In this document: one piece after another, positions 103 to 17,404 of the stretch
Position numbering within the stretch: position 1 is the first letter of the stretch
Layout of the letters: every line of letters begins with the position of its first letter
NCBI GenBank assembly: GCA_004257845.1
Contig: GCA_004257845.1_4800.1
Length of the DNA stretch: 64,000 bases
Strand: one strand, 5' to 3'
DNA from: a phage
Program-made: the position numbers and the translations under genes
Notes under the pieces: model-generated
The model's input: only the letters and a program-made list of their open reading frames with translations
Told to the model about the DNA's origin: nothing
The model's database searches: none

Positions 103-1563
103 ATGAATAAAATATTAACACATAATTGGAAATTCATGTACCAGTTGAATCCTGCTTTAAAAGAAGTCTGGAAGACAAAAGCGCGATACAAAGTAATATA
201 CGGCGGTCGTGCATCTTCCAAATCGCATGATGCCGCTGGTTTTGCTATTTATTTGGCGGCAAACTTCAAATTAAAATTCCTTTGCGTTCGACAATTCCAG
301 AACAAGATTTCTGAATCTGTATATACTCTATTAAAAGACAAAATAGAGATTTCTGATTTCAAAGATGAGTTCAATTTATTAAAGAACTCTATTGAACATA
401 AAAGAACTAAATCTGAATTTCTATTTTACGGTATCGCACGTAACGTTGATGAAATCAAATCAACGGAAGGTGTTGACGTCCTTTGGCTGGAAGAGGCGCA
501 CGCGCTTACTGAAGAACAGTGGGACATTATTGAGCCGACAATACGTAAAGAAGGGTCCGAAATATGGATCATCTTTAACCCTGATGAAGAGGCCGATTTC
601 GTCTATCAAAACTTTGTCATGCGACCGCCGAAGAATGCCATTGTCAAAAAGATAAACTGGCAAGACAATCCATTCTTGTCGCAAACAATGCTGGACGTTA
701 TTGCAGGTATGTACGAGCGTGACCCGAAAAAGGCAGAGCACGTTTATGGCGGCGTGCCGAAGACTGGCGGCGATAAATCTGTAATCAACCGCGCATTCGT
801 TAAGGCCGCGCTTAACCTCCACAAACACCCTACGCTGGGGTGGAGTTTGTCAGGGTCTAACCGTATAGGCTTTGACGTAGCGGACGATGGCGACGACCTT
901 AACGCCACTGCATTCGTTACAGGAAACGTATTGCGCGGCATCAAGACATGGGAAGGTCTGGAAGATGAATTGTTGAAATCGGCAAGCGGAGTTTGGAAAG
1001 ATGCGCTTACATTTGGCGCTTCTATAACTTATGACGCCATCGGTGTCGGCGCTTTTGCTGGTTCAAAATTTGATGAACTGAACGAGTATGCAATACATGA
1101 AAATCCATCATTTCCAAGAATCGAATTTAATGCGTTCAATGCGCAAGGGTCTGTTGATGATCCTGATGACGTTTTTCTTGAATTACCACACGTTGAAATA
1201 CTCAATAAAGACCATTTCGCAAACATAAAAGCGCAAAAGTGGACTGAAATTGCAGAGAGATTCAGAAAGACATACGAATATGCAACTGGGCAAGCCGTAT
1301 ATCCGACTGACGAATTGATTTCAATCGACACCGATGGTATACCGGAACTTGGGATTCCAGCTTGGACTACTGAAGAGATTGAGACGTTTCTTTTTGAGAT
1401 GTCAGCGCCGCGCAAAGATACGTCTGTTCTTGGCAAGTTCAAAGTTGAATCCAAAAAGGATATGGCAAAGCGTGGAGTTAAATCACCTAACAAAGCGGAC
1501 GCAGCAATCATGGCATTGATGAAACCAATCGTTGCAGCATCCGGCTTCTTCTCTAACCTTTAA
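103..1563 (+). CDS. terL: terminase large subunit
   Basis: 486 aa; N-terminal ATPase-like motifs (GGRASSKS Walker A-like, LWLEEAH Walker B-like), Asp-rich C-terminal half; sits upstream of portal. True start could be the internal Met at 136. Confidence 0.75.
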   Translation: MNKILTHNWKFMYQLNPALKEVWKTKARYKVIYGGRASSKSHDAAGFAIYLAANFKLKFLCVRQFQNKISESVYTLLKDKIEISDFKDEFNLLKNSIEHKRTKSEFLFYGIARNVDEIKSTEGVDVLWLEEAHALTEEQWDIIEPTIRKEGSEIWIIFNPDEEADFVYQNFVMRPPKNAIVKKINWQDNPFLSQTMLDVIAGMYERDPKKAEHVYGGVPKTGGDKSVINRAFVKAALNLHKHPTLGWSLSGSNRIGFDVADDGDDLNATAFVTGNVLRGIKTWEGLEDELLKSASGVWKDALTFGASITYDAIGVGAFAGSKFDELNEYAIHENPSFPRIEFNAFNAQGSVDDPDDVFLELPHVEILNKDHFANIKAQKWTEIAERFRKTYEYATGQAVYPTDELISIDTDGIPELGIPAWTTEEIETFLFEMSAPRKDTSVLGKFKVESKKDMAKRGVKSPNKADAAIMALMKPIVAASGFFSNL

Positions 1564-2345: not shown

Positions 2346-2382
2346 AGATTGATTCCCTTTCACTGTCAGGTGGCGTTAACAA

Positions 2383-4757
2383 TGAAAATTCTTGGCATAA
2401 AACTCTGGGAGAAGACGCAACCAGAAGCCGAACCAGCGGAGATGCCGCCAGGCGACCCATTGGCACCGTTTGAACGCCTTGAAAGGCGCGGCAGCGGTCA
2501 ACGCTGGGAAAGGACTGAAAGCAATCGACCGACCTTTAAAACGGTTGATGACTTCCCTTTATATGAGCCTGATATTAACGGGGACGGTGTTGCAATCATC
2601 AAAGGTCGCTCAGTAGATTCAGCAACCGTATCCAAAAAAGTTATGGATAATGCTTTGAAGAACATCAGTTCAGAAGGGCAGGTTAATCCATACACAGTAC
2701 CTATTCAGCTGCAAAACTGGTACTTGTCGCAGTCATTCATCGGCTATCAAGCTTGCGCAATTATCGCGCAGCATTGGCTGGTAAACAAGGCTTGCTCGAT
2801 GGTAGGTCGCGATGCAGTACGTAAAGGTTGGGAAGTAAAATCAAGTTCTGAATCAGAATTGTCTGTGCAGGCAAGTGAACGTCTAAAGCAAATTGATAAA
2901 GAATTTAATATCAAAGAGCACTTAGTTGAAGCCGAACGATTCAAAAATATTTTTGGTATCCGCGTCATCATATTTGATGTGCGTAGCGATGACCCAGAAT
3001 ACTACAGTAAACCTTTTAACATTGATGGTGTGACAAAGGGGTCTTATAAGGGGATCATTCAGGTTGACCCTTATTGGATGATGCCATTTCTGACGTCTGA
3101 AAACACCGCCGACCCTGCTTCACAGCACTTCTATGATCCAGAATACTGGGTGATCAGCGGCCAGCGTTATCATCGCAGCCACCTCATAATCTTGCGCAAC
3201 GATGAGCCAGCTGATATTCTCAAGCCGACTTATATTTACGGCGGCATTCCTCTGACTCAGCAGATTTATGAACGCATCTATGCCGCTGAACGTACCGCCA
3301 ACGAAGCGCCATTGCTGGCGATGTCCAAGCGCACAACGACGCTGCGGACCGACGTTGACAAGGCCATTGCCAATGAGCGGTCTTTTGCAGAACGTCTGAT
3401 GATGTGGATCAAGTACCGCGACAACTATGCGGTCAAAGTGCTTGGTCAGAAAGAAGAGATGGACCAGTTTGACATCAACTTGTCAGACTTCGACAGCATC
3501 ATCATGAACCAGTACCAGCTGGTGGCTGCAATCGCAAAAGTTCCGTCGACCAAACTTCTTGGGACTTCGCCAAAAGGCTTTAACGCCACTGGTGAATTTG
3601 AGATGGTCAGCTATCACGAAGAGTTGGAAACGTGCCAGCAACATGACCTGACAAAAATTCTCGACCGCCATTATAAAATCCTTCTCAAATCAGAAGGGGT
3701 GGAAGTCGACGTTAAGGTTGCATGGGAACCAGTCGGCTCACTTACTGCTACTCAACTTGCAGAAATCAACGACAAGCGAGCTAACACTGGCAAAACTCTC
3801 ATTGATGCTGGCGTCATTTCTCCTGATGAAGAGCGCGACCGCATCAAAGACGACAAAAACAGCGGCTACAACCGTCTGCCGGAAGACGCAGCAGAAGAAA
3901 CCCCAGGGATGTCTCCAGAGAATATGGCATTGCTTGGCAAGTCTGCTGGTGAAGTCCTGCAAGGTAAGGCCGATATTGAACAGGCGAAAGCTGATGTCGT
4001 TAAGATGGGCGGCCAGTTCTATAGCGAAACAGGTATCATGCCAGAAGGTGCCGCGCGTGGTGAGTTGGCGGAAAACCCTGACAGAGCGCCTGTCGAAATC
4101 AACATGGACGATACCGATGATGAATCAAGCCATCAGGTTGATGTCCTAACGCAGTTGAAAGAAGGTCTGGAGGGTATTTCTGATTACTACCTAAAAGAAG
4201 GTCAGGATGTGGATTTTGACCCTCAAAAAGATTCACGGTCGGTGCAACCGTCTACCCTTCCAAGCGTTAAAGGACACGTCGTCAACTTACGCCACAACGT
4301 GGGTAAAATGGACGAAGCAGCATTACCTAAGATGAAGTTGCACGGAATGATTCTTGGCATTGAGAATCCGCGCAACAGCATTCGTAGAGGAAACAGCCTT
4401 GACGGTGAATGGGCTGTGAAGATGCCGCACCATTACGGATTCATCAAGGGCACCAAGGGTGCGGACGGCGATGAAGTCGACTGCTTTGTGGGTCCAAATC
4501 TGAAGTCGCCGAAAGTCTTTATCGTGAACCAAAACGATAACTACTCTGGCGAGTTTGATGAACACAAGTGCATGCTTGGATTCGATTCAGCAGAAGAAGC
4601 GAAAGAAGCTTATCAAGCATCATTTGGGAACGGCTGGAACGGATTCGACTCAATCCACGAATTGGATGTGAACTCATTCAAGGAGTGGTTGAAGGGTGAC
4701 TGCTCTCAAGCATACGGAGCACTCAATAATCCTACTAATTCACCGAAGCAAGGTTGA
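2383..4757 (+). CDS. portal protein with C-terminal inorganic-pyrophosphatase-like domain
   Basis: Long ORF after terminase with portal-like N-terminal ~470 aa; acidic linker; C-terminal ~160 aa contains HYGFI and DGDEVDC, matching the family I pyrophosphatase signature D-[SGDN]-D-[PE]-[LIVMF]-D-[LIVMGAC]. Start set at ATG 2383 (RBS AGGTGG) rather than TTG 2349. Confidence 0.6.
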
Positions 4758-4758
4758 T

Positions 4759-5610
4759 ATGGCTTTTAAAGCTTCGAAAAAACGTGAACGCCGCTCACCC
4801 GATAGAATCGGGCGCGGCAGTCCGATAATCCCATCAAACGCTATTGCGATGGCCTACCGTCGTGAGATGAAAGGTCTTTGCTATGCGATGATTGATGACT
4901 ATCAGGCAGGAATTTCAGAGTGGCTTGAAAAGAAGCAGGTGCAGAAGTTCTTTGCGCAAGACTCTGCTGATTCAACATTCCAAACTCTTATGAAACGTCT
5001 GCAGCTGAAATGGGCAAAGGCGTTTGCTCGTGTTGGGTCGAAGATTGCCGCTGATTTTATCAAGTCGGTTGAAAAGGGCGCTACTTCTGCTACATTTGCA
5101 AGTCTTAAGTCCGCAGGCATAGAAGCGCCAAAGGCCACATATAACAAATTCGTTGAGAACACTCTTAGAACAAGCGAGACGTTCAACACGACTCTAGTGA
5201 CTAAGGTTGGCGAGGATATTCACAACAGAGTGTACGAAGCAGTCATGCTTTCGCTGACTTCGCCCGACCCAGCCCAGCAAGGCACGTCAGGCATTCAGGC
5301 GGCGCTGCGAAACGTAAAACACTTCTCTGCAAAGAGAGTCGACTTAATCGCTAAAGACCAGACAAGCAAATTGTATTGCGTTCTAAGCGATGAAAGGATG
5401 CGACAGAATGGAGTTGAAGAATTTGAATGGTCGCACTCAGGAGCAGGGAAGGAGCCGCGAATCTCTCATGAACATGTCGACGGAATGAGATTCAAACTTG
5501 ATGACAAGCGTCTATGGGAAGTGGGCGGAGAGTTGAAGTTCAAAAAGGGTGACATCGGCCCTCCTGGATGGGCGATACGCTGCAAGTGCAGAAAAATACC
5601 AATCATTTGA
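4759..5610 (+). CDS. head morphogenesis protein (MuF / SPP1 gp7-like)
   Basis: Position immediately after portal; size and sequence character typical of MuF-like minor head proteins; start at ATG 4759 abutting portal stop. Confidence 0.45.
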   Translation: MAFKASKKRERRSPDRIGRGSPIIPSNAIAMAYRREMKGLCYAMIDDYQAGISEWLEKKQVQKFFAQDSADSTFQTLMKRLQLKWAKAFARVGSKIAADFIKSVEKGATSATFASLKSAGIEAPKATYNKFVENTLRTSETFNTTLVTKVGEDIHNRVYEAVMLSLTSPDPAQQGTSGIQAALRNVKHFSAKRVDLIAKDQTSKLYCVLSDERMRQNGVEEFEWSHSGAGKEPRISHEHVDGMRFKLDDKRLWEVGGELKFKKGDIGPPGWAIRCKCRKIPII

Positions 5611-6994: not shown

Positions 6995-7107
6995 CTAATA
7001 AAGGCGCGGCTATATCGGTTGTTATACATATTCAAACCATAATTATTGTTTGCCTAAGTTTTTTTCATTAGATATAATACACAATACTTATTTGAGGGTG
7101 GATGCGA

Positions 7108-8520
7108 ATGCAAACGGCACGCGAAATTGACAAAAATGGATTCTTGACGATTATGGGTTGTCCAATTTCGTCATTTGGCATTTTTGATTATTCTGCTGGT
7201 CAAGTTGGTCTTGATGGTGATCCGAATCGCATCGTAAAAGTCTATCGCCCTGAGTCAGCGGTGAAAGACCCCGAAGCGATAGATTCATTCAAAAATATCC
7301 CTTTCATCGACAATCACGAAATGCTTTCTGGATTTGAAGGTGATGAGGATAACACAGCACCCGAAGAGTATGGAGTTGATGGCGTTCTGACTGGCAATGT
7401 TTATTATGACAAGCCATGGATGCGCGGCGACCTTAAAGTGTTTAGCCGTCGTCTGAAGAAGGCCATTGATTCTGGAAAGGTTGACTTGTCTTTGGGCTAT
7501 GACTGTGAATTCATCATACAGTCTGGAGAGTTTGACGGGCAGCCGTATGAAGTGGTGCAGACAACTCTTCGCGGCAACCACATTGCTCTCGTGGACGTTG
7601 GTCGAGTACCAGGTGCACGGGTGCTGGATGGTCGTTGCTTTGACCATCTTTGTTTGACGACTGTAACACCATCCAACGAGGATTTAGACATGCCAAAACC
7701 GTTAAAAGGTAAAGCGCGTGATAATGCTGTTGAACAGCTGAAATCACTGATCCCTGCGCTCGAACAATTTCTGAATGAAGAGAGCACTGAAGCTGCTCAT
7801 CAGGACGAAGTTGAAGTGAAAGCAGAAGAGAAGGACTCAACCGAAAATCGTGAAGAAGTAATGGTTGATCCAGAAGTCAAGGCAGAAGCAGAAGAAACCC
7901 CAGAAGGTGAAGAGAAGTTTGAAGTTGAAACTGAATCTAACGCTGGCGGCGAACTTCCGCAATTGATCAGCCAAATCGAAGCACTTATTGCAAAACTGAA
8001 AGGTGGCGCGGTAGGTGATGAAGAAGAAGTTGAAGCCGAAGTCAAAGACGAAGAAGTTGAAGTCAAGGCTGAAGATGTATCACCTTGCGACAAAGCTGAA
8101 GATGTGGTTAGCGGCCTGCAAAACAGCAACGTAAAGGGGGCTTCGGTCGAAAAAGATGACAAACCGACAAAAGCGGCGAAAGCGTCGCCAGGTCCAGCAA
8201 AAGGGGAACACTCAATGGCATCTGATTCAGCAGTTGCTGCTTTCTACGCTGATTCTGCTCGTAAGAATAGCCTCTACCAGCGCCTGTCTAAAGTTGTTGG
8301 TGCCTTTGATCATGCAACTATGGACTCCAAGTCCGTAGCGAAATATGGCGCTAAAAAGTTAGGCTTGAAGTGCGTTGATGGCGCTGAGTTTGACGTGGTG
8401 GATAACTATCTGCGCGGCGTTGAACACGGTCAAAAACAGCGTGTAGTCGCAAAACAAAAGGCCGCTGCGGATTCTGCAGCAACTGACGAAGCATTTGAAG
8501 CTTGGTTGAAAGGGGAATAA
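7108..8520 (+). CDS. putative prohead protease / scaffolding protein (XkdF/DUF2213-like N-terminus, Glu-rich scaffold-like C-terminus)
   Basis: Position directly upstream of decoration-like and capsid genes; long acidic low-complexity E/V/K repeat region at 7800-8100; RBS GAGGGTGG before ATG 7108. Confidence 0.4.
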   Translation: MQTAREIDKNGFLTIMGCPISSFGIFDYSAGQVGLDGDPNRIVKVYRPESAVKDPEAIDSFKNIPFIDNHEMLSGFEGDEDNTAPEEYGVDGVLTGNVYYDKPWMRGDLKVFSRRLKKAIDSGKVDLSLGYDCEFIIQSGEFDGQPYEVVQTTLRGNHIALVDVGRVPGARVLDGRCFDHLCLTTVTPSNEDLDMPKPLKGKARDNAVEQLKSLIPALEQFLNEESTEAAHQDEVEVKAEEKDSTENREEVMVDPEVKAEAEETPEGEEKFEVETESNAGGELPQLISQIEALIAKLKGGAVGDEEEVEAEVKDEEVEVKAEDVSPCDKAEDVVSGLQNSNVKGASVEKDDKPTKAAKASPGPAKGEHSMASDSAVAAFYADSARKNSLYQRLSKVVGAFDHATMDSKSVAKYGAKKLGLKCVDGAEFDVVDNYLRGVEHGQKQRVVAKQKAAADSAATDEAFEAWLKGE

Positions 8521-8522
8521 AC

Positions 8523-9140
8523 ATGACTTTCCAAACTAGTGTAGGCCGTCAATATACAACTGGCTTTCCTGGCGACATCGTTCGCGACGGCCCACAGCGT
8601 GGGAAGCCAGGTCGAATCGTTAGCGCCAACGAAGGTGCAAACGTAAACGCCATCAGCCGTGTGTTTGGTTTTAAAGCTGACGTATCTTTAATGGGCACTG
8701 GCCAAACCAAAACCTTGGGCGCGCAGGACTTTGAAGTTGAACTGGGCGGCACCAATTACTATGGCATCCTTGGCAACAGCAAGCGTTACGCTCTGTATGG
8801 CAACTCTACTGGGCCTTTGGGTGCCAGCATGGTTCTGCCTCAATATAGCGAAGGCGAGTTTTACGATATGTGCACGGGCCTCGTAGTTGAAGTATTCAAC
8901 CCTGGCACCAGTCCGCAGACGCTGAACTACGGCGACCTGCTCGCTTATGTACCTAAAGGCATTTCCAGCGGCAACAACCCGAACAACTTGCCTATCGGTG
9001 CAATTATCGCCTATACTGGCTCACTGCCAACTGGCATGGCTGCCATTCCAGGCGGTATCGTGATTGACCCGACTGCTATTGCCCTTTCCGGCCCAAGCGT
9101 CCAGTCTTCCACTTATACCATTGTACAATTGACTCGTTAA
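8523..9140 (+). CDS. putative head structural/decoration protein
   Basis: Gly/Ser-rich 205-aa ORF between scaffold-like and capsid genes. Confidence 0.35.
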   Translation: MTFQTSVGRQYTTGFPGDIVRDGPQRGKPGRIVSANEGANVNAISRVFGFKADVSLMGTGQTKTLGAQDFEVELGGTNYYGILGNSKRYALYGNSTGPLGASMVLPQYSEGEFYDMCTGLVVEVFNPGTSPQTLNYGDLLAYVPKGISSGNNPNNLPIGAIIAYTGSLPTGMAAIPGGIVIDPTAIALSGPSVQSSTYTIVQLTR

Positions 9141-9154
9141 TAGGCAGGTGAATA

Positions 9155-10294
9155 ATGACTCGCATTAGCCAAACACACTCTCGCCTCCCAGCGAGCAAGG
9201 TGCGCCCTTTTGATATGCAATCCGTTACCGACGCGGCTGTTTCCCAGCTTGCTCGTATCGGTATTGTGTTTGATTCCGCGATTGTGCGTGATCAGATTGA
9301 GCACTTAAACCGTGCAGGCGCTTTCCGCGTAGGTGATGCCGCGTTTACTGCGCCGCAGACCACTCCGTCAATCCCGACCCCGTTGCAGTTCCTGCAGCAG
9401 TGGTTGCCTGGCTTCGTCAAAATCATGACCGCCGCTCGTAAAATCGACGAGCTGGTTGGTATTGATACCGTTGGTCAGTGGGAAGATGCAGAAATCGTTC
9501 AGGGTATCGTTGAACCAGCTGGCACCGCAGTTGAATATGGTGATTTCACCTCTATTCCTCTGGCAAGCTGGAACGTAAACTTTGAACGTCGTTCTATCGT
9601 TCGTGGCGAAATGGGCATGGCAGTTGGTATGCTGGAAGAAGGCCGCGCGTCTGCGATGCGTCTGAACTCCGCAGAAACCAAGCGCCAGCAGGCTGCTGTA
9701 TCTCTGGAAATCATGCGTAACGCAATCGGCTTCTATGGCTGGTACAACGGGAACAACCGTACATTCGGCTTCCTGAATGATCCAAATCTGCCAGCGGCGA
9801 TGACTTCCAACACCACTTCCGGCTGGGCTACTGCGACCTTCCAACAGGTGACTGCAGACATCCGTTTGATGGTTCGTCAAATTCGTGTGAACTCTCAGGA
9901 CCAGATTGATCCAGAGAAGGTTGACATGACTCTGGCACTGCCGACCAACTCTATCGATTGGCTGTCCAACACCACTGACTTCGGTATTTCTGTACGTGAC
10001 TGGATCACCCAGACTTATCCGAAGATGAAGATCAAGTCTGCACCGGAACTCAACGGCGCACTTGGCAGCGACCCGACTTTCTTGAACGTGGCATACCTGT
10101 ACGCTGATCACATCGATTCCTCAATCGATGGTTCAAGCGATGATGGTTCCGTATTCAGTCAGCTGGTTCAGACCAAGTTCATGACTCTGGGCGTTGAAAA
10201 GCGTGCTAAGAGCTACGTCGAAGACTACGCAAACGCAACAGCAGGCGTTCTGCTCAAGCGTCCTTTCGCAGTCGTCCGTATGACTGGTATTTAA
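9155..10294 (+). CDS. major capsid protein
   Basis: 379-aa ORF in canonical position after scaffold-like and decoration-like genes; RBS AGGCAGGTGA. Confidence 0.5.
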
Positions 10295-10409
10295 TTGCTG
10301 TGATTACACAGTAAAACACATGGGGCGTGGTCGAAAGGCTTCGCCCCATATCAATAGACCTCAAGGGCTGTAGGGGCTTATCTGAGGCTTATATAAATAG
10401 GACTACAAA

Positions 10410-10874
10410 ATGTCAAAATACATCGTTTCAACTATGTCTATGTCAGTAAACTACACCTTCTATACGGAAGTGAAAGAAAACCCGAATGCAAAAGCTGGTT
10501 CAGGCGCTCTTCCAAATATTCGCAAACAGATTCTAATCAAGGGCGGCGCTGGTCTTACTTCAGCAACTTCCGGCTTTGGTGAAATGGCAAAAGGCGCTGA
10601 CGGTGCACCTTTGTGGACTCCTGAAGGAATCGTCACCGTTGTAAGCGATGCAGATTTTGAGCATCTGAAAGATCATCACGTATTTAAGCAGCATCTTGAA
10701 AAAGGTTTGGTGAAAGTCGTAAATCACGACATTGTTGGCAATCACAAAGCCGTCGCTAAAGAAGTTCGCGGCATGTCAGACGACCCGTTTGCGCCTATGA
10801 CGCGCGAAACTGCTGACAAGCGCATCAAGGTGAAATTGAGCGGCGACCAAGAAGATGATTTATTCCGCGTTTAA
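10410..10874 (+). CDS. hypothetical virion protein
   Basis: ORF in head-tail joining region. Confidence 0.4.
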   Translation: MSKYIVSTMSMSVNYTFYTEVKENPNAKAGSGALPNIRKQILIKGGAGLTSATSGFGEMAKGADGAPLWTPEGIVTVVSDADFEHLKDHHVFKQHLEKGLVKVVNHDIVGNHKAVAKEVRGMSDDPFAPMTRETADKRIKVKLSGDQEDDLFRV

Positions 10875-10888
10875 ATAAGGTGAATGCC

Positions 10889-11344
10889 ATGTCATTAGAT
10901 TACGAAAAGTTCAGAATTAAATTTCCACAGTTTGCTGATCAGGTTAAATTCCCTGACACAACACTTCAAGTATTCTATGACATGGCATGTGAATTTATTG
11001 AATCACAAGACAGTCCTTGTCGTGTTTTAAATGGCAGTAAATTGGAGCTGGCATTGGAATATATGACGGCTCATCTTTTATGCATAGCCGCAGACCAACA
11101 AGTGTCTGTGTCTTCTGGTGACGGAGTTGAACAAAGCGGCTTCGTGACTGGCGCAACAATTGGTGATATCACAGTGAACAAAGTCGCGCCGCCTGCAAGT
11201 GATGGTTGGGAATACTGGCTTTCAAGCACTCCTTATGGCATGGCGCTGTGGGCGCTTCTTCAAGCACTGGCCGTTGGCGGCTTGTCATTCGGCGGTCTTC
11301 CAGAGCGTGAAGGATTCCGTAAAATTGGTGGGGTATTCTGGTGA
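10889..11344 (+). CDS. putative head-tail connector/head completion protein
   Basis: Position and size; ATG 10889 with RBS AAGGTGA. Confidence 0.3.
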   Translation: MSLDYEKFRIKFPQFADQVKFPDTTLQVFYDMACEFIESQDSPCRVLNGSKLELALEYMTAHLLCIAADQQVSVSSGDGVEQSGFVTGATIGDITVNKVAPPASDGWEYWLSSTPYGMALWALLQALAVGGLSFGGLPEREGFRKIGGVFW

Positions 11345-11727
11345 GGATTCCTGGCGTAAACTTATATCGAGTTGCGACAAAGGTTATCGGTCGCCAACCG
11401 ATTCAATATTACATGTACAAGGGGCGCACCCTTGATAAGATGCGCAACTATGTCACTACATATGAAGAACCAATCACCTTACTTGCTTCGGTGCAGGCTG
11501 TACTTCGAAACCAATACGTTGAGCTTGGATTAGAGCTTCAAAAGAACTATGTCAAAATCTGGGTGGACAAAGACATTGTTGACCTTGACCGCGACGCTTC
11601 CGGCGACTATTTTGTGTTTGGTGGCAAAACGTACAAGATGGAAGATGAAACGACATGGTTTGACCAAGATGGTTGGACGTCTTGCCTTGCCGTGGAAGTA
11701 AAACAAAGCTTTCCAGTGTCTACTTGA
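11341..11727 (+). CDS. hypothetical virion protein
   Basis: GTG start overlapping upstream stop (GTGA). Confidence 0.35.
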   Translation: MRIPGVNLYRVATKVIGRQPIQYYMYKGRTLDKMRNYVTTYEEPITLLASVQAVLRNQYVELGLELQKNYVKIWVDKDIVDLDRDASGDYFVFGGKTYKMEDETTWFDQDGWTSCLAVEVKQSFPVST

Positions 11728-11734
11728 GGTGTAT

Positions 11735-12310
11735 ATGACAGATGTCGACCTGATTGACATGCTGGCAACGCGAATTGAAGAAGGTCTGGCGGCGTATAGT
11801 CGTGCAGACCTTTCTGCTGTTCCGGTCCAGAAAAAATACCAACCGACTCAACAGGGCATTCCGACTGGTGATCAGATTTGGTTTAACCTTTTATTCTCAG
11901 TTCCATTCGGTTGGTCGATGAGAAAGAATGAATTTGTCAATGATGAATCTCAATTCGTTAATGGCAAATTTAAAGATATTGAAGATCAGATATATGCAAC
12001 ACGTTTTCAAATTAGCGGCTTATTTCCAGAAGTCCCTGGCAATCCAGAAAAGCCTACGGCTAATGACGTTTTGACTTATTTAGCAAGATTCATAACCCAC
12101 AAGGCTAATTTGAGGGATTGGTTTAAAAGGCATCAAGCTTCAGTATATAGAGTCGACATGAACAACAATGAAAAGTTCTATGACGACATGTCTCAGTTCG
12201 AATCGTTTCCTTCTTTTGATTTGGTAATCCTTCACAGAAACGCAATTTCAATTGACACGCCTGCTGTTGCAAGAGCTGTTAATAATGATTTAGGCGATAT
12301 TCCGGTGTGA
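11735..12310 (+). CDS. hypothetical virion protein
   Basis: ATG 11735 with RBS TGAGGTG. Confidence 0.4.
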   Translation: MTDVDLIDMLATRIEEGLAAYSRADLSAVPVQKKYQPTQQGIPTGDQIWFNLLFSVPFGWSMRKNEFVNDESQFVNGKFKDIEDQIYATRFQISGLFPEVPGNPEKPTANDVLTYLARFITHKANLRDWFKRHQASVYRVDMNNNEKFYDDMSQFESFPSFDLVILHRNAISIDTPAVARAVNNDLGDIPV

Positions 12311-12311
12311 T

Positions 12312-12797
12312 ATGACAAAATCAAAAATGATAGAAAAACAGATAAAGGCGCTTCAATCGATGAAGGGTCTTACTGTAGAGGCAGGATGGTTTGATTCTAC
12401 CAGATACCCTTCAGAAACTGGTGGAGAAGGGATGTTGGTGTCAGAAGTCGCGCGACTTAATGAATTTGGTCACATAGCCGTTTTGAACTTTGGACAAGGT
12501 CCAGTCAGGGTAGAAGTGCCACCCAGACCATTCATGAGATATGCCTATGAATTATTCGTTAGTGAGCGCAGTGAAATAGAGAATAAAATTGCTAAAAAGA
12601 TTTTTTCCGGTAAAATAGACGCTAGACAGGCATTAGGTCAGATTGGGCTTGCGATGGAAGCAAAGATTGTCGAATCAATTAAAAACGGACCTTGGCAAAG
12701 AAACGCCAGATATACCGTGCGTGTGAAAGGATTCGACAAACCTTTAATTCACAGCAGCCTTATGTGGCAATCTGTCAACAGCCAAGTCATTAAATAA
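12312..12797 (+). CDS. hypothetical virion protein (tail completion candidate)
   Basis: Position before sheath gene. Confidence 0.35.
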   Translation: MTKSKMIEKQIKALQSMKGLTVEAGWFDSTRYPSETGGEGMLVSEVARLNEFGHIAVLNFGQGPVRVEVPPRPFMRYAYELFVSERSEIENKIAKKIFSGKIDARQALGQIGLAMEAKIVESIKNGPWQRNARYTVRVKGFDKPLIHSSLMWQSVNSQVIK

Positions 12798-12809
12798 GAG
12801 GACACCGAC

Positions 12810-14348
12810 GTGATCAGTCAATCTCGTTATATTAAAATTGTATCAGGGGTCGGAGCAGGCGCGGCTGTTGCAGTTCGCAAACTGTCGCTTCGCATCATGA
12901 CTTCCAATACAGTTCTGCCGCCTGGCATTGTAGCAGAATTTTCAACTGCTGATGCCGTTGGATCATATTTCGGTTTTTCTTCCGAAGAATACAAGCGTGC
13001 AGCACTGTATTTCGGATTCATCAGCAAGCAAATCAACTCGCCTGATTCAATCAGCTTTTCTCGCGTTGTATCCACGGCGATTCCTGCAATGGTTATCGGC
13101 GACACTGAGCCTAAAACGCTTGCTACTTTCCAGGCATTCACTGGCGCTATCTTAAGCATCACTTATGACGGCACAGACTACCTGACTGACGCCATCAACC
13201 TTTCAGCGGCAACAAGTCTTGCCAACGTAGCGGAACTTTTGGAAACGGCAATCAACACCAAGTTTGCAGCAGAAGGTGGCACGTCGGTGCCTGCACTTGC
13301 TGATGCAGAAGTGTATTGGAATGCCAACACCCAGCAGTTCACTTTGGAAGCCGCTCCGTCGACCGCTGGTGCTGGAAACCTTTCGATTAACGTCACAGGT
13401 CAACCGACAGACCCATCTCAGGCGCTTGGTTGGACGACTACTGGCACCGTTACGGTTGCTGGACAGGGTGTAGCAAGTCCGGTAGAAGCCATCGCGGCAT
13501 CTGTGGAGATTTCCAACAACTTTGGCTCATTCCTTTTCGCTGGAGCAGACCGAACGCTGGAAGAAATCACAGCCGTTGCAGCTTGGACTCACTCGCAGAA
13601 CAACATGTACATGTATCTGTTCTCGACTGCATTCGCCAACATCGGCTCATACTATACCGCGTTGAAAGGTTACTCAGGCGTTGGTATGATGATCCGTGCA
13701 ACTAACCTCGCGAATGATTACATCGACCAGGCACCTGCTGAAATTCTTGCGGCGACAAACTATAACACTGTAAATGCAACTCAAAACTACATGTATTATC
13801 AGTTTGAAACGCGAAATGTAACCGTATCGACTGATTCACGCGCAGATACTGCTGATCAAAACCGTGCAAACTATATCGGTGCGACTCAGCAAGCTGGTCA
13901 AACTCTCGCGTTCTTCCAGCGTGGTGTTCTGATGGGCGGGTCTACCGCAGCAGTTGACATGAACACTTATGCCAACGAGATGTGGCTTAAATCTGCTATC
14001 ACTTCTCAGCTGTTCAGCATGTTCTTGAATCTTGGTCGCGTGCCTGCAAACGAAGAAGGCAAAGCGACTGTCCAAGCCATGATTCAAGTTGCTGTTGACA
14101 ATGCGAAGGTTAACGGCACCATCTCTGTCGGTAAGGCGCTGACGGAAATTCAGAAACAGTACATCACGCAAACCTCCGGTGACAACACTGCTTGGCGGCA
14201 GGTTGAGACTATCGGTTATTGGTTGACTGTCGATTTTGACACTGAAACCACTTCCGATAACCGCACCGAATACTATGCAACATACACGCTAATCTACTCT
14301 AAAGATGATGCTGTGCGTCGCGTTGAAGGTCGTGACGTTCTTATTTAA
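12810..14348 (+). CDS. putative tail sheath protein
   Basis: 512 aa, immediately upstream of tube gene; baseplate J- and V-like genes downstream support a contractile tail. Confidence 0.45.
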   Translation: MISQSRYIKIVSGVGAGAAVAVRKLSLRIMTSNTVLPPGIVAEFSTADAVGSYFGFSSEEYKRAALYFGFISKQINSPDSISFSRVVSTAIPAMVIGDTEPKTLATFQAFTGAILSITYDGTDYLTDAINLSAATSLANVAELLETAINTKFAAEGGTSVPALADAEVYWNANTQQFTLEAAPSTAGAGNLSINVTGQPTDPSQALGWTTTGTVTVAGQGVASPVEAIAASVEISNNFGSFLFAGADRTLEEITAVAAWTHSQNNMYMYLFSTAFANIGSYYTALKGYSGVGMMIRATNLANDYIDQAPAEILAATNYNTVNATQNYMYYQFETRNVTVSTDSRADTADQNRANYIGATQQAGQTLAFFQRGVLMGGSTAAVDMNTYANEMWLKSAITSQLFSMFLNLGRVPANEEGKATVQAMIQVAVDNAKVNGTISVGKALTEIQKQYITQTSGDNTAWRQVETIGYWLTVDFDTETTSDNRTEYYATYTLIYSKDDAVRRVEGRDVLI

Positions 14349-14395
14349 ATAATTGCCGCCGTAAATGGCGGCCATCTCTCTGAGAGGAATCTGTA

Positions 14396-14863
14396 ATGAT
14401 TAACGTTTCCGGTTTTGGCGCTTCGATTCGTTTGGTAGCATCAAACACTTTTCCGAATGGTGTGACTCTTTCTGATTTTGCAGATGATGCTGATCCGATT
14501 GACGCGCCGGACCTGCAAATCTCTGAGGCTGCAATGGGCCTTAACGGTGACTTAGTAGTATGGAACCGTGCAAACCCGCTTGAAGTAGGTGTGAACATCA
14601 TCCCTACTTCTGAAAGTGATGTCAACTTGGACGTTCTTGCAGCTGCAAACCGCGTAGGCAAGCGTAAGAACTCTGCAAAAGACGTGATCACACTTGTGCT
14701 GACTTATCCTTCTGGAATGGTTATCACGCTAAACAAAGGCACCTTGACAACTGGTTCAGTAATTCCTGGCATCCAGTCTCAAGGTCGTGTGAAAACACGC
14801 CAATATCGCTTCAAGTTTGAGAACGTAGTCAAAACTGGCGTGAGCAACCAAGAGATTTTATAA
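14396..14863 (+). CDS. putative tail tube protein
   Basis: 155 aa after sheath; paralog of 15814-16311. Confidence 0.45.
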   Translation: MINVSGFGASIRLVASNTFPNGVTLSDFADDADPIDAPDLQISEAAMGLNGDLVVWNRANPLEVGVNIIPTSESDVNLDVLAAANRVGKRKNSAKDVITLVLTYPSGMVITLNKGTLTTGSVIPGIQSQGRVKTRQYRFKFENVVKTGVSNQEIL

Positions 14864-15192
14864 TGTATCAAATACCACTTGACAGCGTACCTAACCAGAA
14901 TATCAGCTTTAACGTTGACGGTGCATATTGGCAGTTGCACATTTTTGCTGCTATCGAGCACATGTGCGCCGACGTATACCGCAACGGTGAACTTTTGATT
15001 CAAGGGGTGCGCTGTTTTGGTGGTATCCCAATGGTGCCTTATAAGTATCTCATGATTGGGTACGGTAATTTCATTTTCGACAGCGTACCTGATTATGAAA
15101 GTTTTAACTCTGGCGGCTGTAATCTATATTACATGTCAGAATCTGAGTTGGCTGAATTCCAGGCAACTGCTGAAGCGGAGTTTGCAATTTGA
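14863..15192 (+). CDS. hypothetical protein
   Basis: ATG overlapping upstream stop (TAATG). Confidence 0.4.
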   Translation: MYQIPLDSVPNQNISFNVDGAYWQLHIFAAIEHMCADVYRNGELLIQGVRCFGGIPMVPYKYLMIGYGNFIFDSVPDYESFNSGGCNLYYMSESELAEFQATAEAEFAI

Positions 15193-15545
15193 CAACTCTA
15201 ACAATTGAAGTTAACGAAAATAATGACCTTTTTCTGCCTGATGGAAGAAACTTAAATATTCTTTCAGGAGAAAAAGCGATGGTGCAAGTAATCAAGGCCG
15301 CGCACCAGATGCGACTTGGTGAAGACTTGTACGATATAGAAAACGGTGTCGATTATTTGGGGACCGTTTTCAAGTCGCCCGTTGACGAAGACGGTGCGCG
15401 AAAGTCGATTGCAGATGCTATTCTGAAGAAAGCAGACGTTGCCGGAATCGACTCATTGACTGTCACCATCCAAAACGGTATCCTTGGATTCACTGCAGAA
15501 GTGGTGACTATTTATGGCGAACGTATAAAGGTGAGTAATCAATAA
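15189..15545 (+). CDS. hypothetical protein
   Basis: ORF with TTG start overlapping upstream stop; alternative ATG near 15279. Confidence 0.3.
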   Translation: MTTLTIEVNENNDLFLPDGRNLNILSGEKAMVQVIKAAHQMRLGEDLYDIENGVDYLGTVFKSPVDEDGARKSIADAILKKADVAGIDSLTVTIQNGILGFTAEVVTIYGERIKVSNQ

Positions 15546-15811
15546 TGGCACAAGTAATTCATTTTGCAAATGGCGTCATGAAATTTGGCGAAAAATTTGA
15601 AGACGCATCAGAGCTGTTTAATAAGAAGGTTGAGCCTGTTGCAGAAATCAAAGAGCAGGTCGAAGAAAAATCCGTTGAACAAAAACTAGATTTTGATTCC
15701 ATGAGCGTTTCAGAATTGAAGTCTTATGCTAAAGAAAATGGCATTGACATCAAGGGTCTTTCTTATAAGGATGAAATTCTTGCTGCAGTTAAATCTGCAT
15801 CTGCGGAGTAA
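15545..15811 (+). CDS. hypothetical protein (88 aa)
   Basis: ATG overlapping upstream stop (TAATG). Confidence 0.4.
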   Translation: MAQVIHFANGVMKFGEKFEDASELFNKKVEPVAEIKEQVEEKSVEQKLDFDSMSVSELKSYAKENGIDIKGLSYKDEILAAVKSASAE

Positions 15812-15813
15812 AC

Positions 15814-16311
15814 ATGGTCAATATTAGTGGATTTGGCACAAGCATTAGAATTGTCGCTCTTCAATCTTTTCCTGTTGGGCTGAATATCAGTTCTTTGTCT
15901 GATGACCAGGATTCGCTAATTATTGAGGAAGTTGAATCAGTAGGTTATCAACTTACTTACGACGGCGGCATTTGCATATACGACAAAGCCGCCGTCGTTC
16001 GCGTATCCATTGCGGTCATTCCAAACACTGAAGACGACATAAATCTTAAGCTTTTATTATCTGCCCGTAAAGGTGGATTCAAGTGGTTGCCAATTCAGGA
16101 TGTGACATCGATGCTCATTACATATCCTGACGGTGGAAGGGTGGCATTCTCTAACGGAACGATAATCAGCGGTCCGCTTGGTGACTCCATAGAGCAATCA
16201 GGCCGTCGCAAGACAAACCGATACACATTTGTGTTTGCCAGCTACGGTGGCGCACAGAGCACGTCTCAAATTGCCAAGGGCGTGGTGCAGAGCATATTGG
16301 GGTCCATTTAA
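15814..16311 (+). CDS. tail tube protein paralog
   Basis: Alignable with 14396-14863 product over full length (M-INxSGFGxSIRxVA ... IPxxEDDxNL ... TYPxG ... GRxKTxxYxF). Confidence 0.45.
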   Translation: MVNISGFGTSIRIVALQSFPVGLNISSLSDDQDSLIIEEVESVGYQLTYDGGICIYDKAAVVRVSIAVIPNTEDDINLKLLLSARKGGFKWLPIQDVTSMLITYPDGGRVAFSNGTIISGPLGDSIEQSGRRKTNRYTFVFASYGGAQSTSQIAKGVVQSILGSI

Positions 16312-16844
16312 TGGCTATCGATTTACTGTCATATAGTCTATCAAACAGAAGCTTCACGATAAAGAGCTTCAACCTTGGAGAAGTATCCACGCTTGGATGG
16401 GCCATAGTCAACGTCAAAATAAGACTCCAAGCGAAGATATTCAAAAACCAAAGGGAAGACGGCAGCTATATTGTCGATGGCAGAGTAAAGATGCCGCGAA
16501 TACTCACTGTCACCGTGATAGCTCAGACGAAAAGCGCATCAGATGCAATAGCTAAGATGTTGCAAAACAGGTCGACTATATACACAATTAATTCCCGTGG
16601 TCTAATATTCGAACGTATGGTGCTGCAAAATAACAACTTCAGCCAGGACGCTGACAATATAACGTCTCAGCCCATACAATTGGTCTTCCATGAGATATTA
16701 ACACAGCAGGATGTGTCTATTCAAACAGCGCAGGCAGGCGACTCAACAGTAATAGAGCGCGGCATTGCATACATAAAAGAAACTTCTGCCAGCGTCACTG
16801 GCGTCGCTACAAAGGTGATGAATGGTATCAAGGGGATGTTCTGA
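16311..16844 (+). CDS. hypothetical tail protein
   Basis: Shares C-terminal block with the next gene (INSRGLIFERMVLQNNNF vs ITSRSIIASKMSMSDVEI). Confidence 0.4.
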   Translation: MAIDLLSYSLSNRSFTIKSFNLGEVSTLGWAIVNVKIRLQAKIFKNQREDGSYIVDGRVKMPRILTVTVIAQTKSASDAIAKMLQNRSTIYTINSRGLIFERMVLQNNNFSQDADNITSQPIQLVFHEILTQQDVSIQTAQAGDSTVIERGIAYIKETSASVTGVATKVMNGIKGMF

Positions 16845-17404
16845 TGGACTTCGTTTCGATTCTGCTTTCTGGTCAATCTTTGACCATAACGAATGAGTCA
16901 ACAGGTCTTCCTGTCTGGACAAGGCTTTCACCTGTTTCTGCAGAAATAACATCCCCAGCAGAAACAACTCAATTCCCTCTTGCTGGTACAGCCATGCAGG
17001 TTGTCGAAGTATCAAGCACGTCATCAGTAAGCAATTTACAGGCGGCAAAGGTTGTAATGCCAGCCCATATGGCGTTAAACGTAATTTGCAATGACCAGTC
17101 TACAATTGAAAATATCATAAATTCATTTGATGATGACGAAGTCACATTTTCAATAACTTCTCGAAGCATCATTGCCAGTAAAATGTCGATGTCCGACGTT
17201 GAAATAACCCAGTCAGAAGAAAACTTGAATGGAGTCTCAATAGTAATAACTTTCGAGCAAACGTCATTTAGCATTCAAGGAAGCTTCGACCCTAAACAAT
17301 CTGCAGACGAATCATCAAATGGTGTTGCCATTAAAGAACCAGTCAGTTTGACTACAACTGTGAGTTCGTTATATAATAAAATAAAATCAACAGTAGGAAT
17401 ATAA
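16844..17404 (+). CDS. hypothetical tail protein (paralog of previous)
   Basis: See previous; ATGA start-stop overlap. Confidence 0.4.
   Translation: MDFVSILLSGQSLTITNESTGLPVWTRLSPVSAEITSPAETTQFPLAGTAMQVVEVSSTSSVSNLQAAKVVMPAHMALNVICNDQSTIENIINSFDDDEVTFSITSRSIIASKMSMSDVEITQSEENLNGVSIVITFEQTSFSIQGSFDPKQSADESSNGVAIKEPVSLTTTVSSLYNKIKSTVGI

Follow-up and report, generated by a model that had tools for sequence, protein, structure and literature searches.

We analysed a window of 64,000 nucleotides (nt), the whole of a stretch of phage DNA on contig GCA_004257845.1_4800.1 (GenBank assembly GCA_004257845.1), with attention to the gene at 2382..4757 on the plus strand that encodes the portal protein. 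The window comes from an E. coli phage of Wifcevirus, a genus of Escherichia coli and Shigella myophages of ~68 kb. The gene is an in-frame fusion of a genuine portal with a pyrophosphatase-like domain (InPase) that makes up the C-terminal ~150-190 amino acids (aa), and in which the alignable catalytic aspartates and glutamate are intact. The fusion is already known and catalogued, and phages of this group have it as an ordinary, conserved trait. We favour the view, at a probability of roughly 0.55, that portal-InPase would be a catalytically competent phosphoanhydride hydrolase, of which each capsid would hold 12 copies and which would probably be set free in the host.

The uninterrupted maximal open reading frame (ORF) in the ORF listing runs from a TTG at 2349 to 4757 on the plus strand and counts 802 aa. 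An earlier note on this DNA, made without database searches, gave the protein this length. The figure holds for the maximal ORF, whereas the true protein probably has 791 aa plus the stop codon, because four annotated relatives (Mansfield, Bas98, SP13 and WFC) start at the ATG equivalent to window position 2382, the most likely start, and the Mansfield annotation places a ribosome binding site directly upstream of it. Residue numbers below refer to the 791-aa form unless stated otherwise; adding 11 converts them to the 802-aa numbering.

Profile searches assigned both parts of the protein. In Pfam the ORF matches PF06381 (Phage_portal_3 / DUF1073; E=4.7e-88, 295.7 bits) and, near its C-terminus, PF18823 (InPase, 'Inorganic Pyrophosphatase'; E=3.6e-46, 156.8 bits against a gathering score of 26.8 bits), the latter over profile positions 12-135 of 135. 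The C-terminal fragment alone scores 160.5 bits. The hidden Markov model search thus bears out the pyrophosphatase-like C-terminal domain that the earlier note had proposed from motifs, and the interval given there, 4200-4757, does enclose it: the Pfam match covers nt 4326-4694, and the confidently modelled part, which we take as the InPase (family I pyrophosphatase-like) domain, covers 4299..4718 on the plus strand (aa 640-779). A bona fide orthologue of the classical pyrophosphatase Ppa was considered and rejected. PF00719 (classical family I) scores 18.0 bits, or 20.6 with the fragment, under its gathering score of 23.5 bits, and only the signature segment (profile positions 32-56) is matched, so that the domain is filed under PF18823. 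Judged by these profiles, the InPase domain of the portal is a divergent sister family of the classical family I pyrophosphatases.

The portal part is equally clear. Its core, at 2700..3995 (plus strand), comprises wing, stem, crown and the start of the C-terminal barrel, and corresponds to PF06381 and to the part of E217 and Pa193 gp19 resolved by cryo-electron microscopy (cryo-EM). Membership of the portal family follows from PF06381 together with homology to the gp19 portals 8fvh and 9b41, which were built as dodecamers. In PHROGs, phrog_4660 ('minor head protein') matches the fusion protein end to end with 1270.7 bits, and the C-terminal domain alone also matches many giant virion proteins, for example DarB-like proteins. 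NCBIfam gave only a sub-threshold match to the HI1409 portal family and none for the C-terminal domain.

The motifs on which the domain was first recognised are present. HYGFI (aa 684-688, nt 4431-4445) is followed by DGDEVDC (aa 695-701, nt 4464-4484), and the block at 4431..4484 (plus strand) is the segment best aligned to Ppa and PF00719. DGDEVDC fits D-[SGDN]-D-[PE]-[LIVMF]-D-[LIVMGAC], which we take to be the PROSITE family I signature, as the earlier note had read it; it is the single match in a six-frame translation of the whole window, and mononucleotide shuffles gave a mean of 0.01 matches. By hhalign, Y685 pairs with Y55 of E. coli Ppa, and D695, D697 and D700 pair with D65, D67 and D70, the metal-binding and catalytic aspartates. 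Upstream, E661 of the IENP motif (4359..4370, plus strand) pairs with Ppa E20 (IENP against IEIP). Downstream lies FDEHK (aa 725-729, 4554..4568, plus strand), whose D726, E727 and K729 lie around Ppa E101/D102/K104. The resemblance of FDEHK to the second metal-binding region is supported in that the motif is there, has F725, D726, E727 and K729 invariant, and has its DEhK placed by HMMER opposite DEK of the Helicobacter pylori pyrophosphatase 1ygz; its exact register against Ppa is ambiguous. The hhalign comparison, whether run with a single sequence or a 15-sequence profile, is reliable only at IENP and YGF...DGDEVD and of low confidence in the C-terminal half, and the Ppa homologues used for the profile are 82-99% identical to each other, which does not make a deep profile.

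Conservation follows the same residues. Fifteen positions are invariant in 66 portal-fused homologues (E661, N662, R668, H684, Y685, G686, D695, D700, Q717, F725, D726, E727, K729, A740 and Y744), and the position of D697 holds D or E. Moreover, E661, R668, Y685, D695, D700, Q717, D726, E727, K729 and Y744 reach 98-100% conservation across 165 InPase domains of unrelated architectures, with E661 retained in 98% of them. The family-wide InPase set (E of IENP, R, YG, D-G-D/E-x-x-D, Q, D-E-x-K and Y) is kept entirely in the window. The N-terminal Q...GNY motif (profile positions ~1-11), with Q, G, N and Y found at those positions in 80-85% of the 165 domains, is absent throughout the portal-fused clade and reads V, D, E, A in the window. 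Membership of the InPase family stands without it, the motif being no known catalytic element. Instead, the portal-fused clade has a conserved extension of its own, EGxD...R...P...PSV.G...LPKMK, found in the window at 4179-4325 (aa 600-648). This extension may belong to the fold, or serve as a site for processing or docking.

Structure prediction points the same way. An AlphaFold 2 (AF2) model of aa 632-791 built with 15 sequences has a predicted local distance difference test score (pLDDT) of 84.0 and a predicted template modelling score (pTM) of 0.79; for aa 600-791 with 66 sequences the values are 88.7 and 0.82. In the AF2 model the first 10 residues of the clade-specific extension have a pLDDT of 89. 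The best 50 Foldseek matches are all family I pyrophosphatases (E=2e-4 to 5e-3, probability 0.85-1.0), at template modelling (TM) scores of 0.24-0.47. A search with the domain profile against all PDB sequences returned the Pa193 portal first and family I pyrophosphatases in 18/19 remaining matches, with E-values of 0.004 for H. pylori 1ygz and 0.1-1.4 for other pyrophosphatases. Aligned directly with E. coli Ppa by hhalign, the domain reaches a probability of 64-88%; the confident stretch is Y685-G-F-I...D695-G-D697-E-V-D700 against Y55...D65-G-D67-P-V-D70, and the IENP/IEIP pairing is weaker. The predicted likeness to the OB-fold beta-barrel of these enzymes is therefore specific but moderate, which would fit a divergent, trimmed branch of the fold, lacking the beta-hairpin of classical type I enzymes, as Iyer et al. 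describe (PMC5512222). The pyrophosphatase fold that the earlier note expected from modelling was thus returned by AF2 and Foldseek.

Comparative data show that the fusion is genuine. The gene is covered by 29 Wifcevirus GenBank records, which match it whole, in a single stretch without gaps, at 92-97% nucleotide identity. The translation was read in five of these and has no internal stop, nor do the orthologues of PB1, BcepF1 and FoX6. In a search of 5.8 billion proteins, both PF06381 and PF18823 were present in 120/120 best clusters, mostly on contigs of 66-74 kb. The single continuous ORF of the earlier note is therefore confirmed across 29 genomes and 120 clusters. Between the barrel and the InPase domain lies an acidic, fast-evolving linker (3996..4298, plus strand; isoelectric point (pI) 4.5), of which the last ~40 aa are the clade-specific extension, conserved beside the domain. 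Across genera, identity is 59-64% in the portal core and 55-62% in the InPase domain, but only 23-24%, with indels, in the intervening ~120 aa. Within Wifcevirus, the ratio of nonsynonymous to synonymous substitution rates (dN/dS) is 0.014-0.024 for the InPase domain (at dS 0.3-0.8) and 0.03-0.07 for the linker, and synonymous changes dominate along the whole gene. The InPase domain is under strong purifying selection. The pattern is that of two modules under constraint with a flexible acidic linker between them.

The InPase family is large. At 50% identity the profile found 12,138 cluster representatives, 8,304 with E<=1e-30, and most of the proteins are 2,000-6,600 aa long. Among phage genome records 471/50,697 contain the domain, of which 294 are from Pseudomonas phages (those listed are PB1-like / Pbunavirus) and 27 from Escherichia phages; BcepF1-like phages and Xanthomonas phage FoX6 are also represented. 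Vibrio phages have InPase in a small separate gene of 283 aa without a portal, annotated 'putative inorganic pyrophosphatase'. Sequence comparison places the portal-InPase fusion as conserved across the group of Wifcevirus, Pbunavirus, Bcepfunavirus and Carpasinavirus. Moreover, five close relatives (~51-53% identity), P0177 (1321 aa), P0181 (1199 aa), P0259 (1272 aa), P0232 and P0036, extend the architecture to portal-InPase-X-ART, in which an unassigned stretch of ~260-375 aa is followed by a C-terminal ADP-ribosyltransferase (ART; PF03496). Because some relatives add this enzyme, the portal C-terminus suggests a modular effector arm in this clade.

Annotation of these genes is inconsistent, with GenBank labels of 'hypothetical protein', 'minor head protein', 'portal protein', 'DUF1073 domain-containing protein', 'putative structural protein' and 'inorganic pyrophosphatase', the last being the NCBI name of the homologue in Luteibacter phage Pluto. 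The ECO71P1 and RCIP0319 records show two features beneath one match, which suggests that gene callers have split the gene. One further candidate fusion, the 'putative portal' of Achromobacter phage CF418P1 (2684 aa, 8822-16876), was rejected: it contains InPase, LPD3 and LPD38 and no Pfam portal domain. Its InPase matches the full profile including the N-terminal motif, and it looks like a typical polyvalent protein that is probably mis-annotated.

Homologous portals indicate where the domain would sit. Pa193 gp19 (9b41) aligns with the window protein over its full length (E=1.3e-250; aa 25-790 in the 802-aa numbering against 22-763), and E217 gp19 (8fvh_O) aligns to aa 118-549 of the same numbering (E=3.7e-189). 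According to the cryo-EM papers both are dodecamers, with models of residues 97-528 (E217) and 94-528 (Pa193) of 765, and in Pa193 no density could be made out for the C-terminal residues 529-765. The C-terminal helical barrel of E217 points into the head, is ordered only with DNA present and is unstructured after ejection. The earlier note had placed the domain inside the capsid, and this agrees with the E217 and Pa193 portals, in which the barrel is directed toward the head and residues 529-765 go unresolved. The pyrophosphatase domain is not mentioned in either structure paper. The Pa193 authors did not see the first 93 portal residues with LC-MS (liquid chromatography coupled to mass spectrometry) and suggest that they are perhaps cleaved, which makes maturation proteolysis of a gp19-type portal plausible. 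In the PB1-like phage SCUT-S1 the homologue, ORF20 (84.5 kDa), was found in virions by mass spectrometry with 44 peptides and 59% coverage, a total reported without peptide positions. The E217 paper reports no mass spectrometry, the KTN6/KT28 paper contains nothing on the portal-InPase homologue, and the BASEL study describes Wifcevirus and Pbunavirus as distant relatives and does not mention the InPase domain.

From these data we propose the following course of events. By homology with the resolved structures, a portal dodecamer would bring 12 InPase copies into each virion, with the C-termini turned into the capsid and the InPase domains forming mobile, unordered modules amid the packaged DNA. 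The domain may be an active Mg2+-dependent phosphoanhydride hydrolase that is pre-loaded in the particle. Were the arm to be cut, e.g. by the prohead protease, the freed domain could exit with the DNA and act at the very start of infection. Such release would require cleavage, because ~110 linker residues span <400 Å compared with a tail of 1300-1500 Å. The substrate would be inorganic pyrophosphate (PPi) or, more plausibly given that only 12 molecules are available per infection, a nucleotide-like or defence-related phosphoanhydride; bulk PPi removal is unlikely. An effector role is supported by the occurrence of the same domain in thousands of virion polyvalent proteins. By analogy with T4 Alt, the ADP-ribosyltransferase of the relatives would have no obvious target inside the capsid and would find its targets only in the host.

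Several observations weigh against this proposal. Cleavage is its weakest step: Pfam searches identified neither a cleavage site nor a protease domain in the portal-InPase protein and, given linker reach and tail length, an InPase domain left uncut could not get into the cell. The searchable literature yielded no enzymatic assay of any InPase domain. Twelve enzymes could hardly shift bulk PPi beside the abundant host Ppa. The full family I active site has ~13 residues, in E. coli E20, K29, E31, R43, Y55, D65, D67, D70, D97, D102, K104, Y141 and K142, and five of these (K29, E31, R43, Y141 and K142) could not be mapped on the InPase domain by hhalign. The equivalent of D97 is D719, which is not conserved and is N in PB1, and D102 and K104 have D726/E727 and K729 as probable equivalents in an ambiguous alignment register. 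Finally, the SCUT-S1 coverage does not locate the C-terminal part of the protein in the virion.

A more daring form of the proposal, which we put forward tentatively and would not rely on, makes the portal arm a cargo loader for exactly 12 enzymes (InPase and, in some relatives, the ADP-ribosyltransferase) that would be cut off by the prohead protease and ejected ahead of or with the DNA; InPase would then destroy a particular host molecule with a phosphoanhydride, for instance an alarmone or a nucleotide immune signal, and not bulk PPi. If true, this would be a virion-delivered counter-defence enzyme of a widely used group of therapeutic phages (PB1-like and Wifcevirus).

It is rather unlikely, although worth weighing, that the InPase domain stays tethered inside the capsid, with a role in assembly or packaging or as a metal- or phosphate-binding module that organises or senses DNA near the portal, its chemistry being secondary. 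Pfam searches showed neither a cleavage site nor a protease domain in the protein, a linker of such low pI is what would be expected of a spacer that avoids DNA, and the E217 barrel folds only in the DNA-filled head, so the C-terminal region responds to DNA. The SCUT-S1 protein was also seen at its full predicted mass class, though the whole gel lane was analysed. However, the same domain with its invariant residues recurs in ~12,000 cluster representatives, mostly giant non-portal proteins, and its function is thus not portal-dependent; and relatives add to the arm an ADP-ribosyltransferase, which needs host targets. We also know of no PPi-producing reaction inside capsids.

Alternatively, the InPase domain is delivered as we propose and its substrate is specifically not PPi but a nucleotide-derived phosphoanhydride, for instance an alarmone or defence signal. 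This is a sub-case of the hydrolase proposal, and as a specific claim we consider it doubtful. Family I enzymes are highly specific for PPi with Mg2+, the conserved D-x-D-x-x-D and D-E-x-K residues form the constellation of enzymes that hydrolyse PPi, and there is no direct evidence for any substrate. Nevertheless, the family has invariants that are absent from the classical enzymes (H684, Q717, E727 and H728, the last mostly H), and 12 copies per infection would speak against bulk PPi removal. Related InPase domains are linked to NUDIX, GNAT and TmrB genes, part of the classical fold is missing, and a nucleotide-like substrate has been proposed (PMC5512222). Moreover, Wifcevirus was isolated on K-12 only after the removal of all known defences (BASEL study).

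We think it very improbable that the InPase domain has lost its catalysis and is a relic retained only for a structural or spacer role. The score under the PF00719 threshold, the variable equivalent of D97 and the loss in the portal-fused clade of Q...GNY, a motif of ~80% of polyvalent InPase domains, could be read in this way. However, all acidic residues aligned to the metal and catalytic site of Ppa are invariant in the 66 portal fusions, and dN/dS is ~0.02, whereas a spacer would evolve like the linker, with its 23-24% identity. That two genes, a portal and a small pyrophosphatase, were merged through a frameshift in sequencing or assembly stands refuted by the comparisons and has next to no chance of being correct, having in its favour an unusually long portal ORF and nothing else, and against it the ungapped matches of 29 independently sequenced genomes, the full-length family phrog_4660, the open frames of five Wifcevirus copies and of PB1, BcepF1 and FoX6, the two domains together in every one of the best clusters, and the dominance of synonymous changes.

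The portal-InPase gene lies in a head module of the order terminase, portal, MuF, protease/scaffold and capsid, which is the same in BcepF1, FoX6 and PB1. Upstream is the large terminase subunit (103..1563, plus strand; PF04466, E=3e-37). Two small genes of 79 and 138 aa on the minus strand (1567-2219) break the module between terminase and portal; the pair is also annotated in Mansfield (CPT_Mansfield_022 and 023) and has no Pfam match. Downstream, a MuF/SPP1 gp7-like minor head protein (4759..5610, plus strand; PF04233, E=8e-7, 30.2 bits against a cut-off of 29.6) starts 2 nt past the portal stop, which suggests translational coupling. The window MuF has no extra C-terminal toxin domain, unlike many of the MuF fusions of Iyer et al. 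(PMC5512222). Further neighbours are a head-fibre-like protein and a cement protein of the E217 gp24 type.

A DUF2213 protein of 472 aa (7102..8520, plus strand; PF09979, E=5e-35), labelled capsid maturation protease in Mansfield, is a candidate for the proteolytic processing of the portal arm, a role that would follow from this label; the label itself rests on a weak HHpred match (78%), and the protein is highly acidic and E/K/A-rich over a long middle and C-terminal part. The Pa193 paper interprets gp24 of that phage, encoded just upstream of the decoration and capsid genes, as a scaffolding protein that remains beneath the fivefold vertices. The DUF2213 gene is likewise placed just upstream of the decoration and capsid genes, a likeness of position. 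The DUF2213 protein may combine protease and scaffold functions. In the window as a whole, ARAGORN found no tRNA genes, and both coding strand and GC skew flip to minus at ~28-46 kb and then back, consistent with divergent structural and early/replication modules.

The InPase domain is very widespread, with its ~12,000 cluster representatives, its presence in 471/50,697 phage genomes and nearly 300 Pseudomonas records, mostly of therapy-used PB1-like phages, and it went unremarked in two high-resolution virion structures of homologous phages. Whether 12 active hydrolases enter the host, and what their substrate is, would inform how infection starts and how these phages cope with host defences.

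As to known systems, the earlier note was mistaken in taking the architecture as undescribed: it was published in 2017 (PMC5512222), is captured in PF18823 and phrog_4660, and has reached GenBank through the name of the Pluto homologue. Iyer, Burroughs, Anand, de Souza and Aravind (J Bacteriol 199:e00245-17, PMC5512222) defined InPase as a monophyletic branch of type I pyrophosphatases in phage polyvalent proteins, and explicitly reported InPase-portal fusions, citing BcepF1.124. In their scheme, fusions with a portal or MuF are the 'simplest architectures' allied to polyvalent proteins, and they propose injection, with PPi clearance or a nucleotide-like molecule as options for the substrate. 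BcepF1.124 is an orthologue of the window protein, with shared synteny (TerL, small genes, portal-InPase, MuF) and identities of 64% for the core and 62% for the InPase domain. The gp19 proteins of E217 and Pa193 are likewise laid out in three parts, with portal core, linker and InPase at 62%, 24% and 57% identity, respectively. The InPase domains of polyvalent proteins belong to the same family (PF18823) and have the invariant residues in common with the window protein; they differ in that ~80% have the N-terminal Q...GNY, where the portal-fused clade has its own N-terminal extension. Polyvalent proteins carry 2-15 effector domains, often with a metallopeptidase, whereas Pfam and PHROGs searches of the window protein gave a portal with one accessory domain and no processing peptidase. 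The relatives that also carry an ADP-ribosyltransferase are nearer to this definition.

The likeness to E. coli Ppa and PF00719 consists of the signature, of the aligned and retained equivalents of E20, Y55, D65, D67 and D70, and of a predicted fold that retrieves only these enzymes. However, Ppa is a free cytoplasmic hexamer, whereas InPase is part of a virion protein, stays under the PF00719 threshold and has a predicted activity. T4 Alt and the MuF-toxin fusions resemble portal-InPase in that an enzyme domain is attached to a head component beside the portal and MuF genes, and an Alt-like ADP-ribosyltransferase sits on the same arm in relatives of the window protein. Packaging and injection have been demonstrated for T4 Alt (PMC5512222), whereas for portal-fused InPase they are only proposed. 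Unlike head-packaged enzymes that are injected, the portal remains with the capsid, and a portal-attached InPase would therefore need cleavage for its release.

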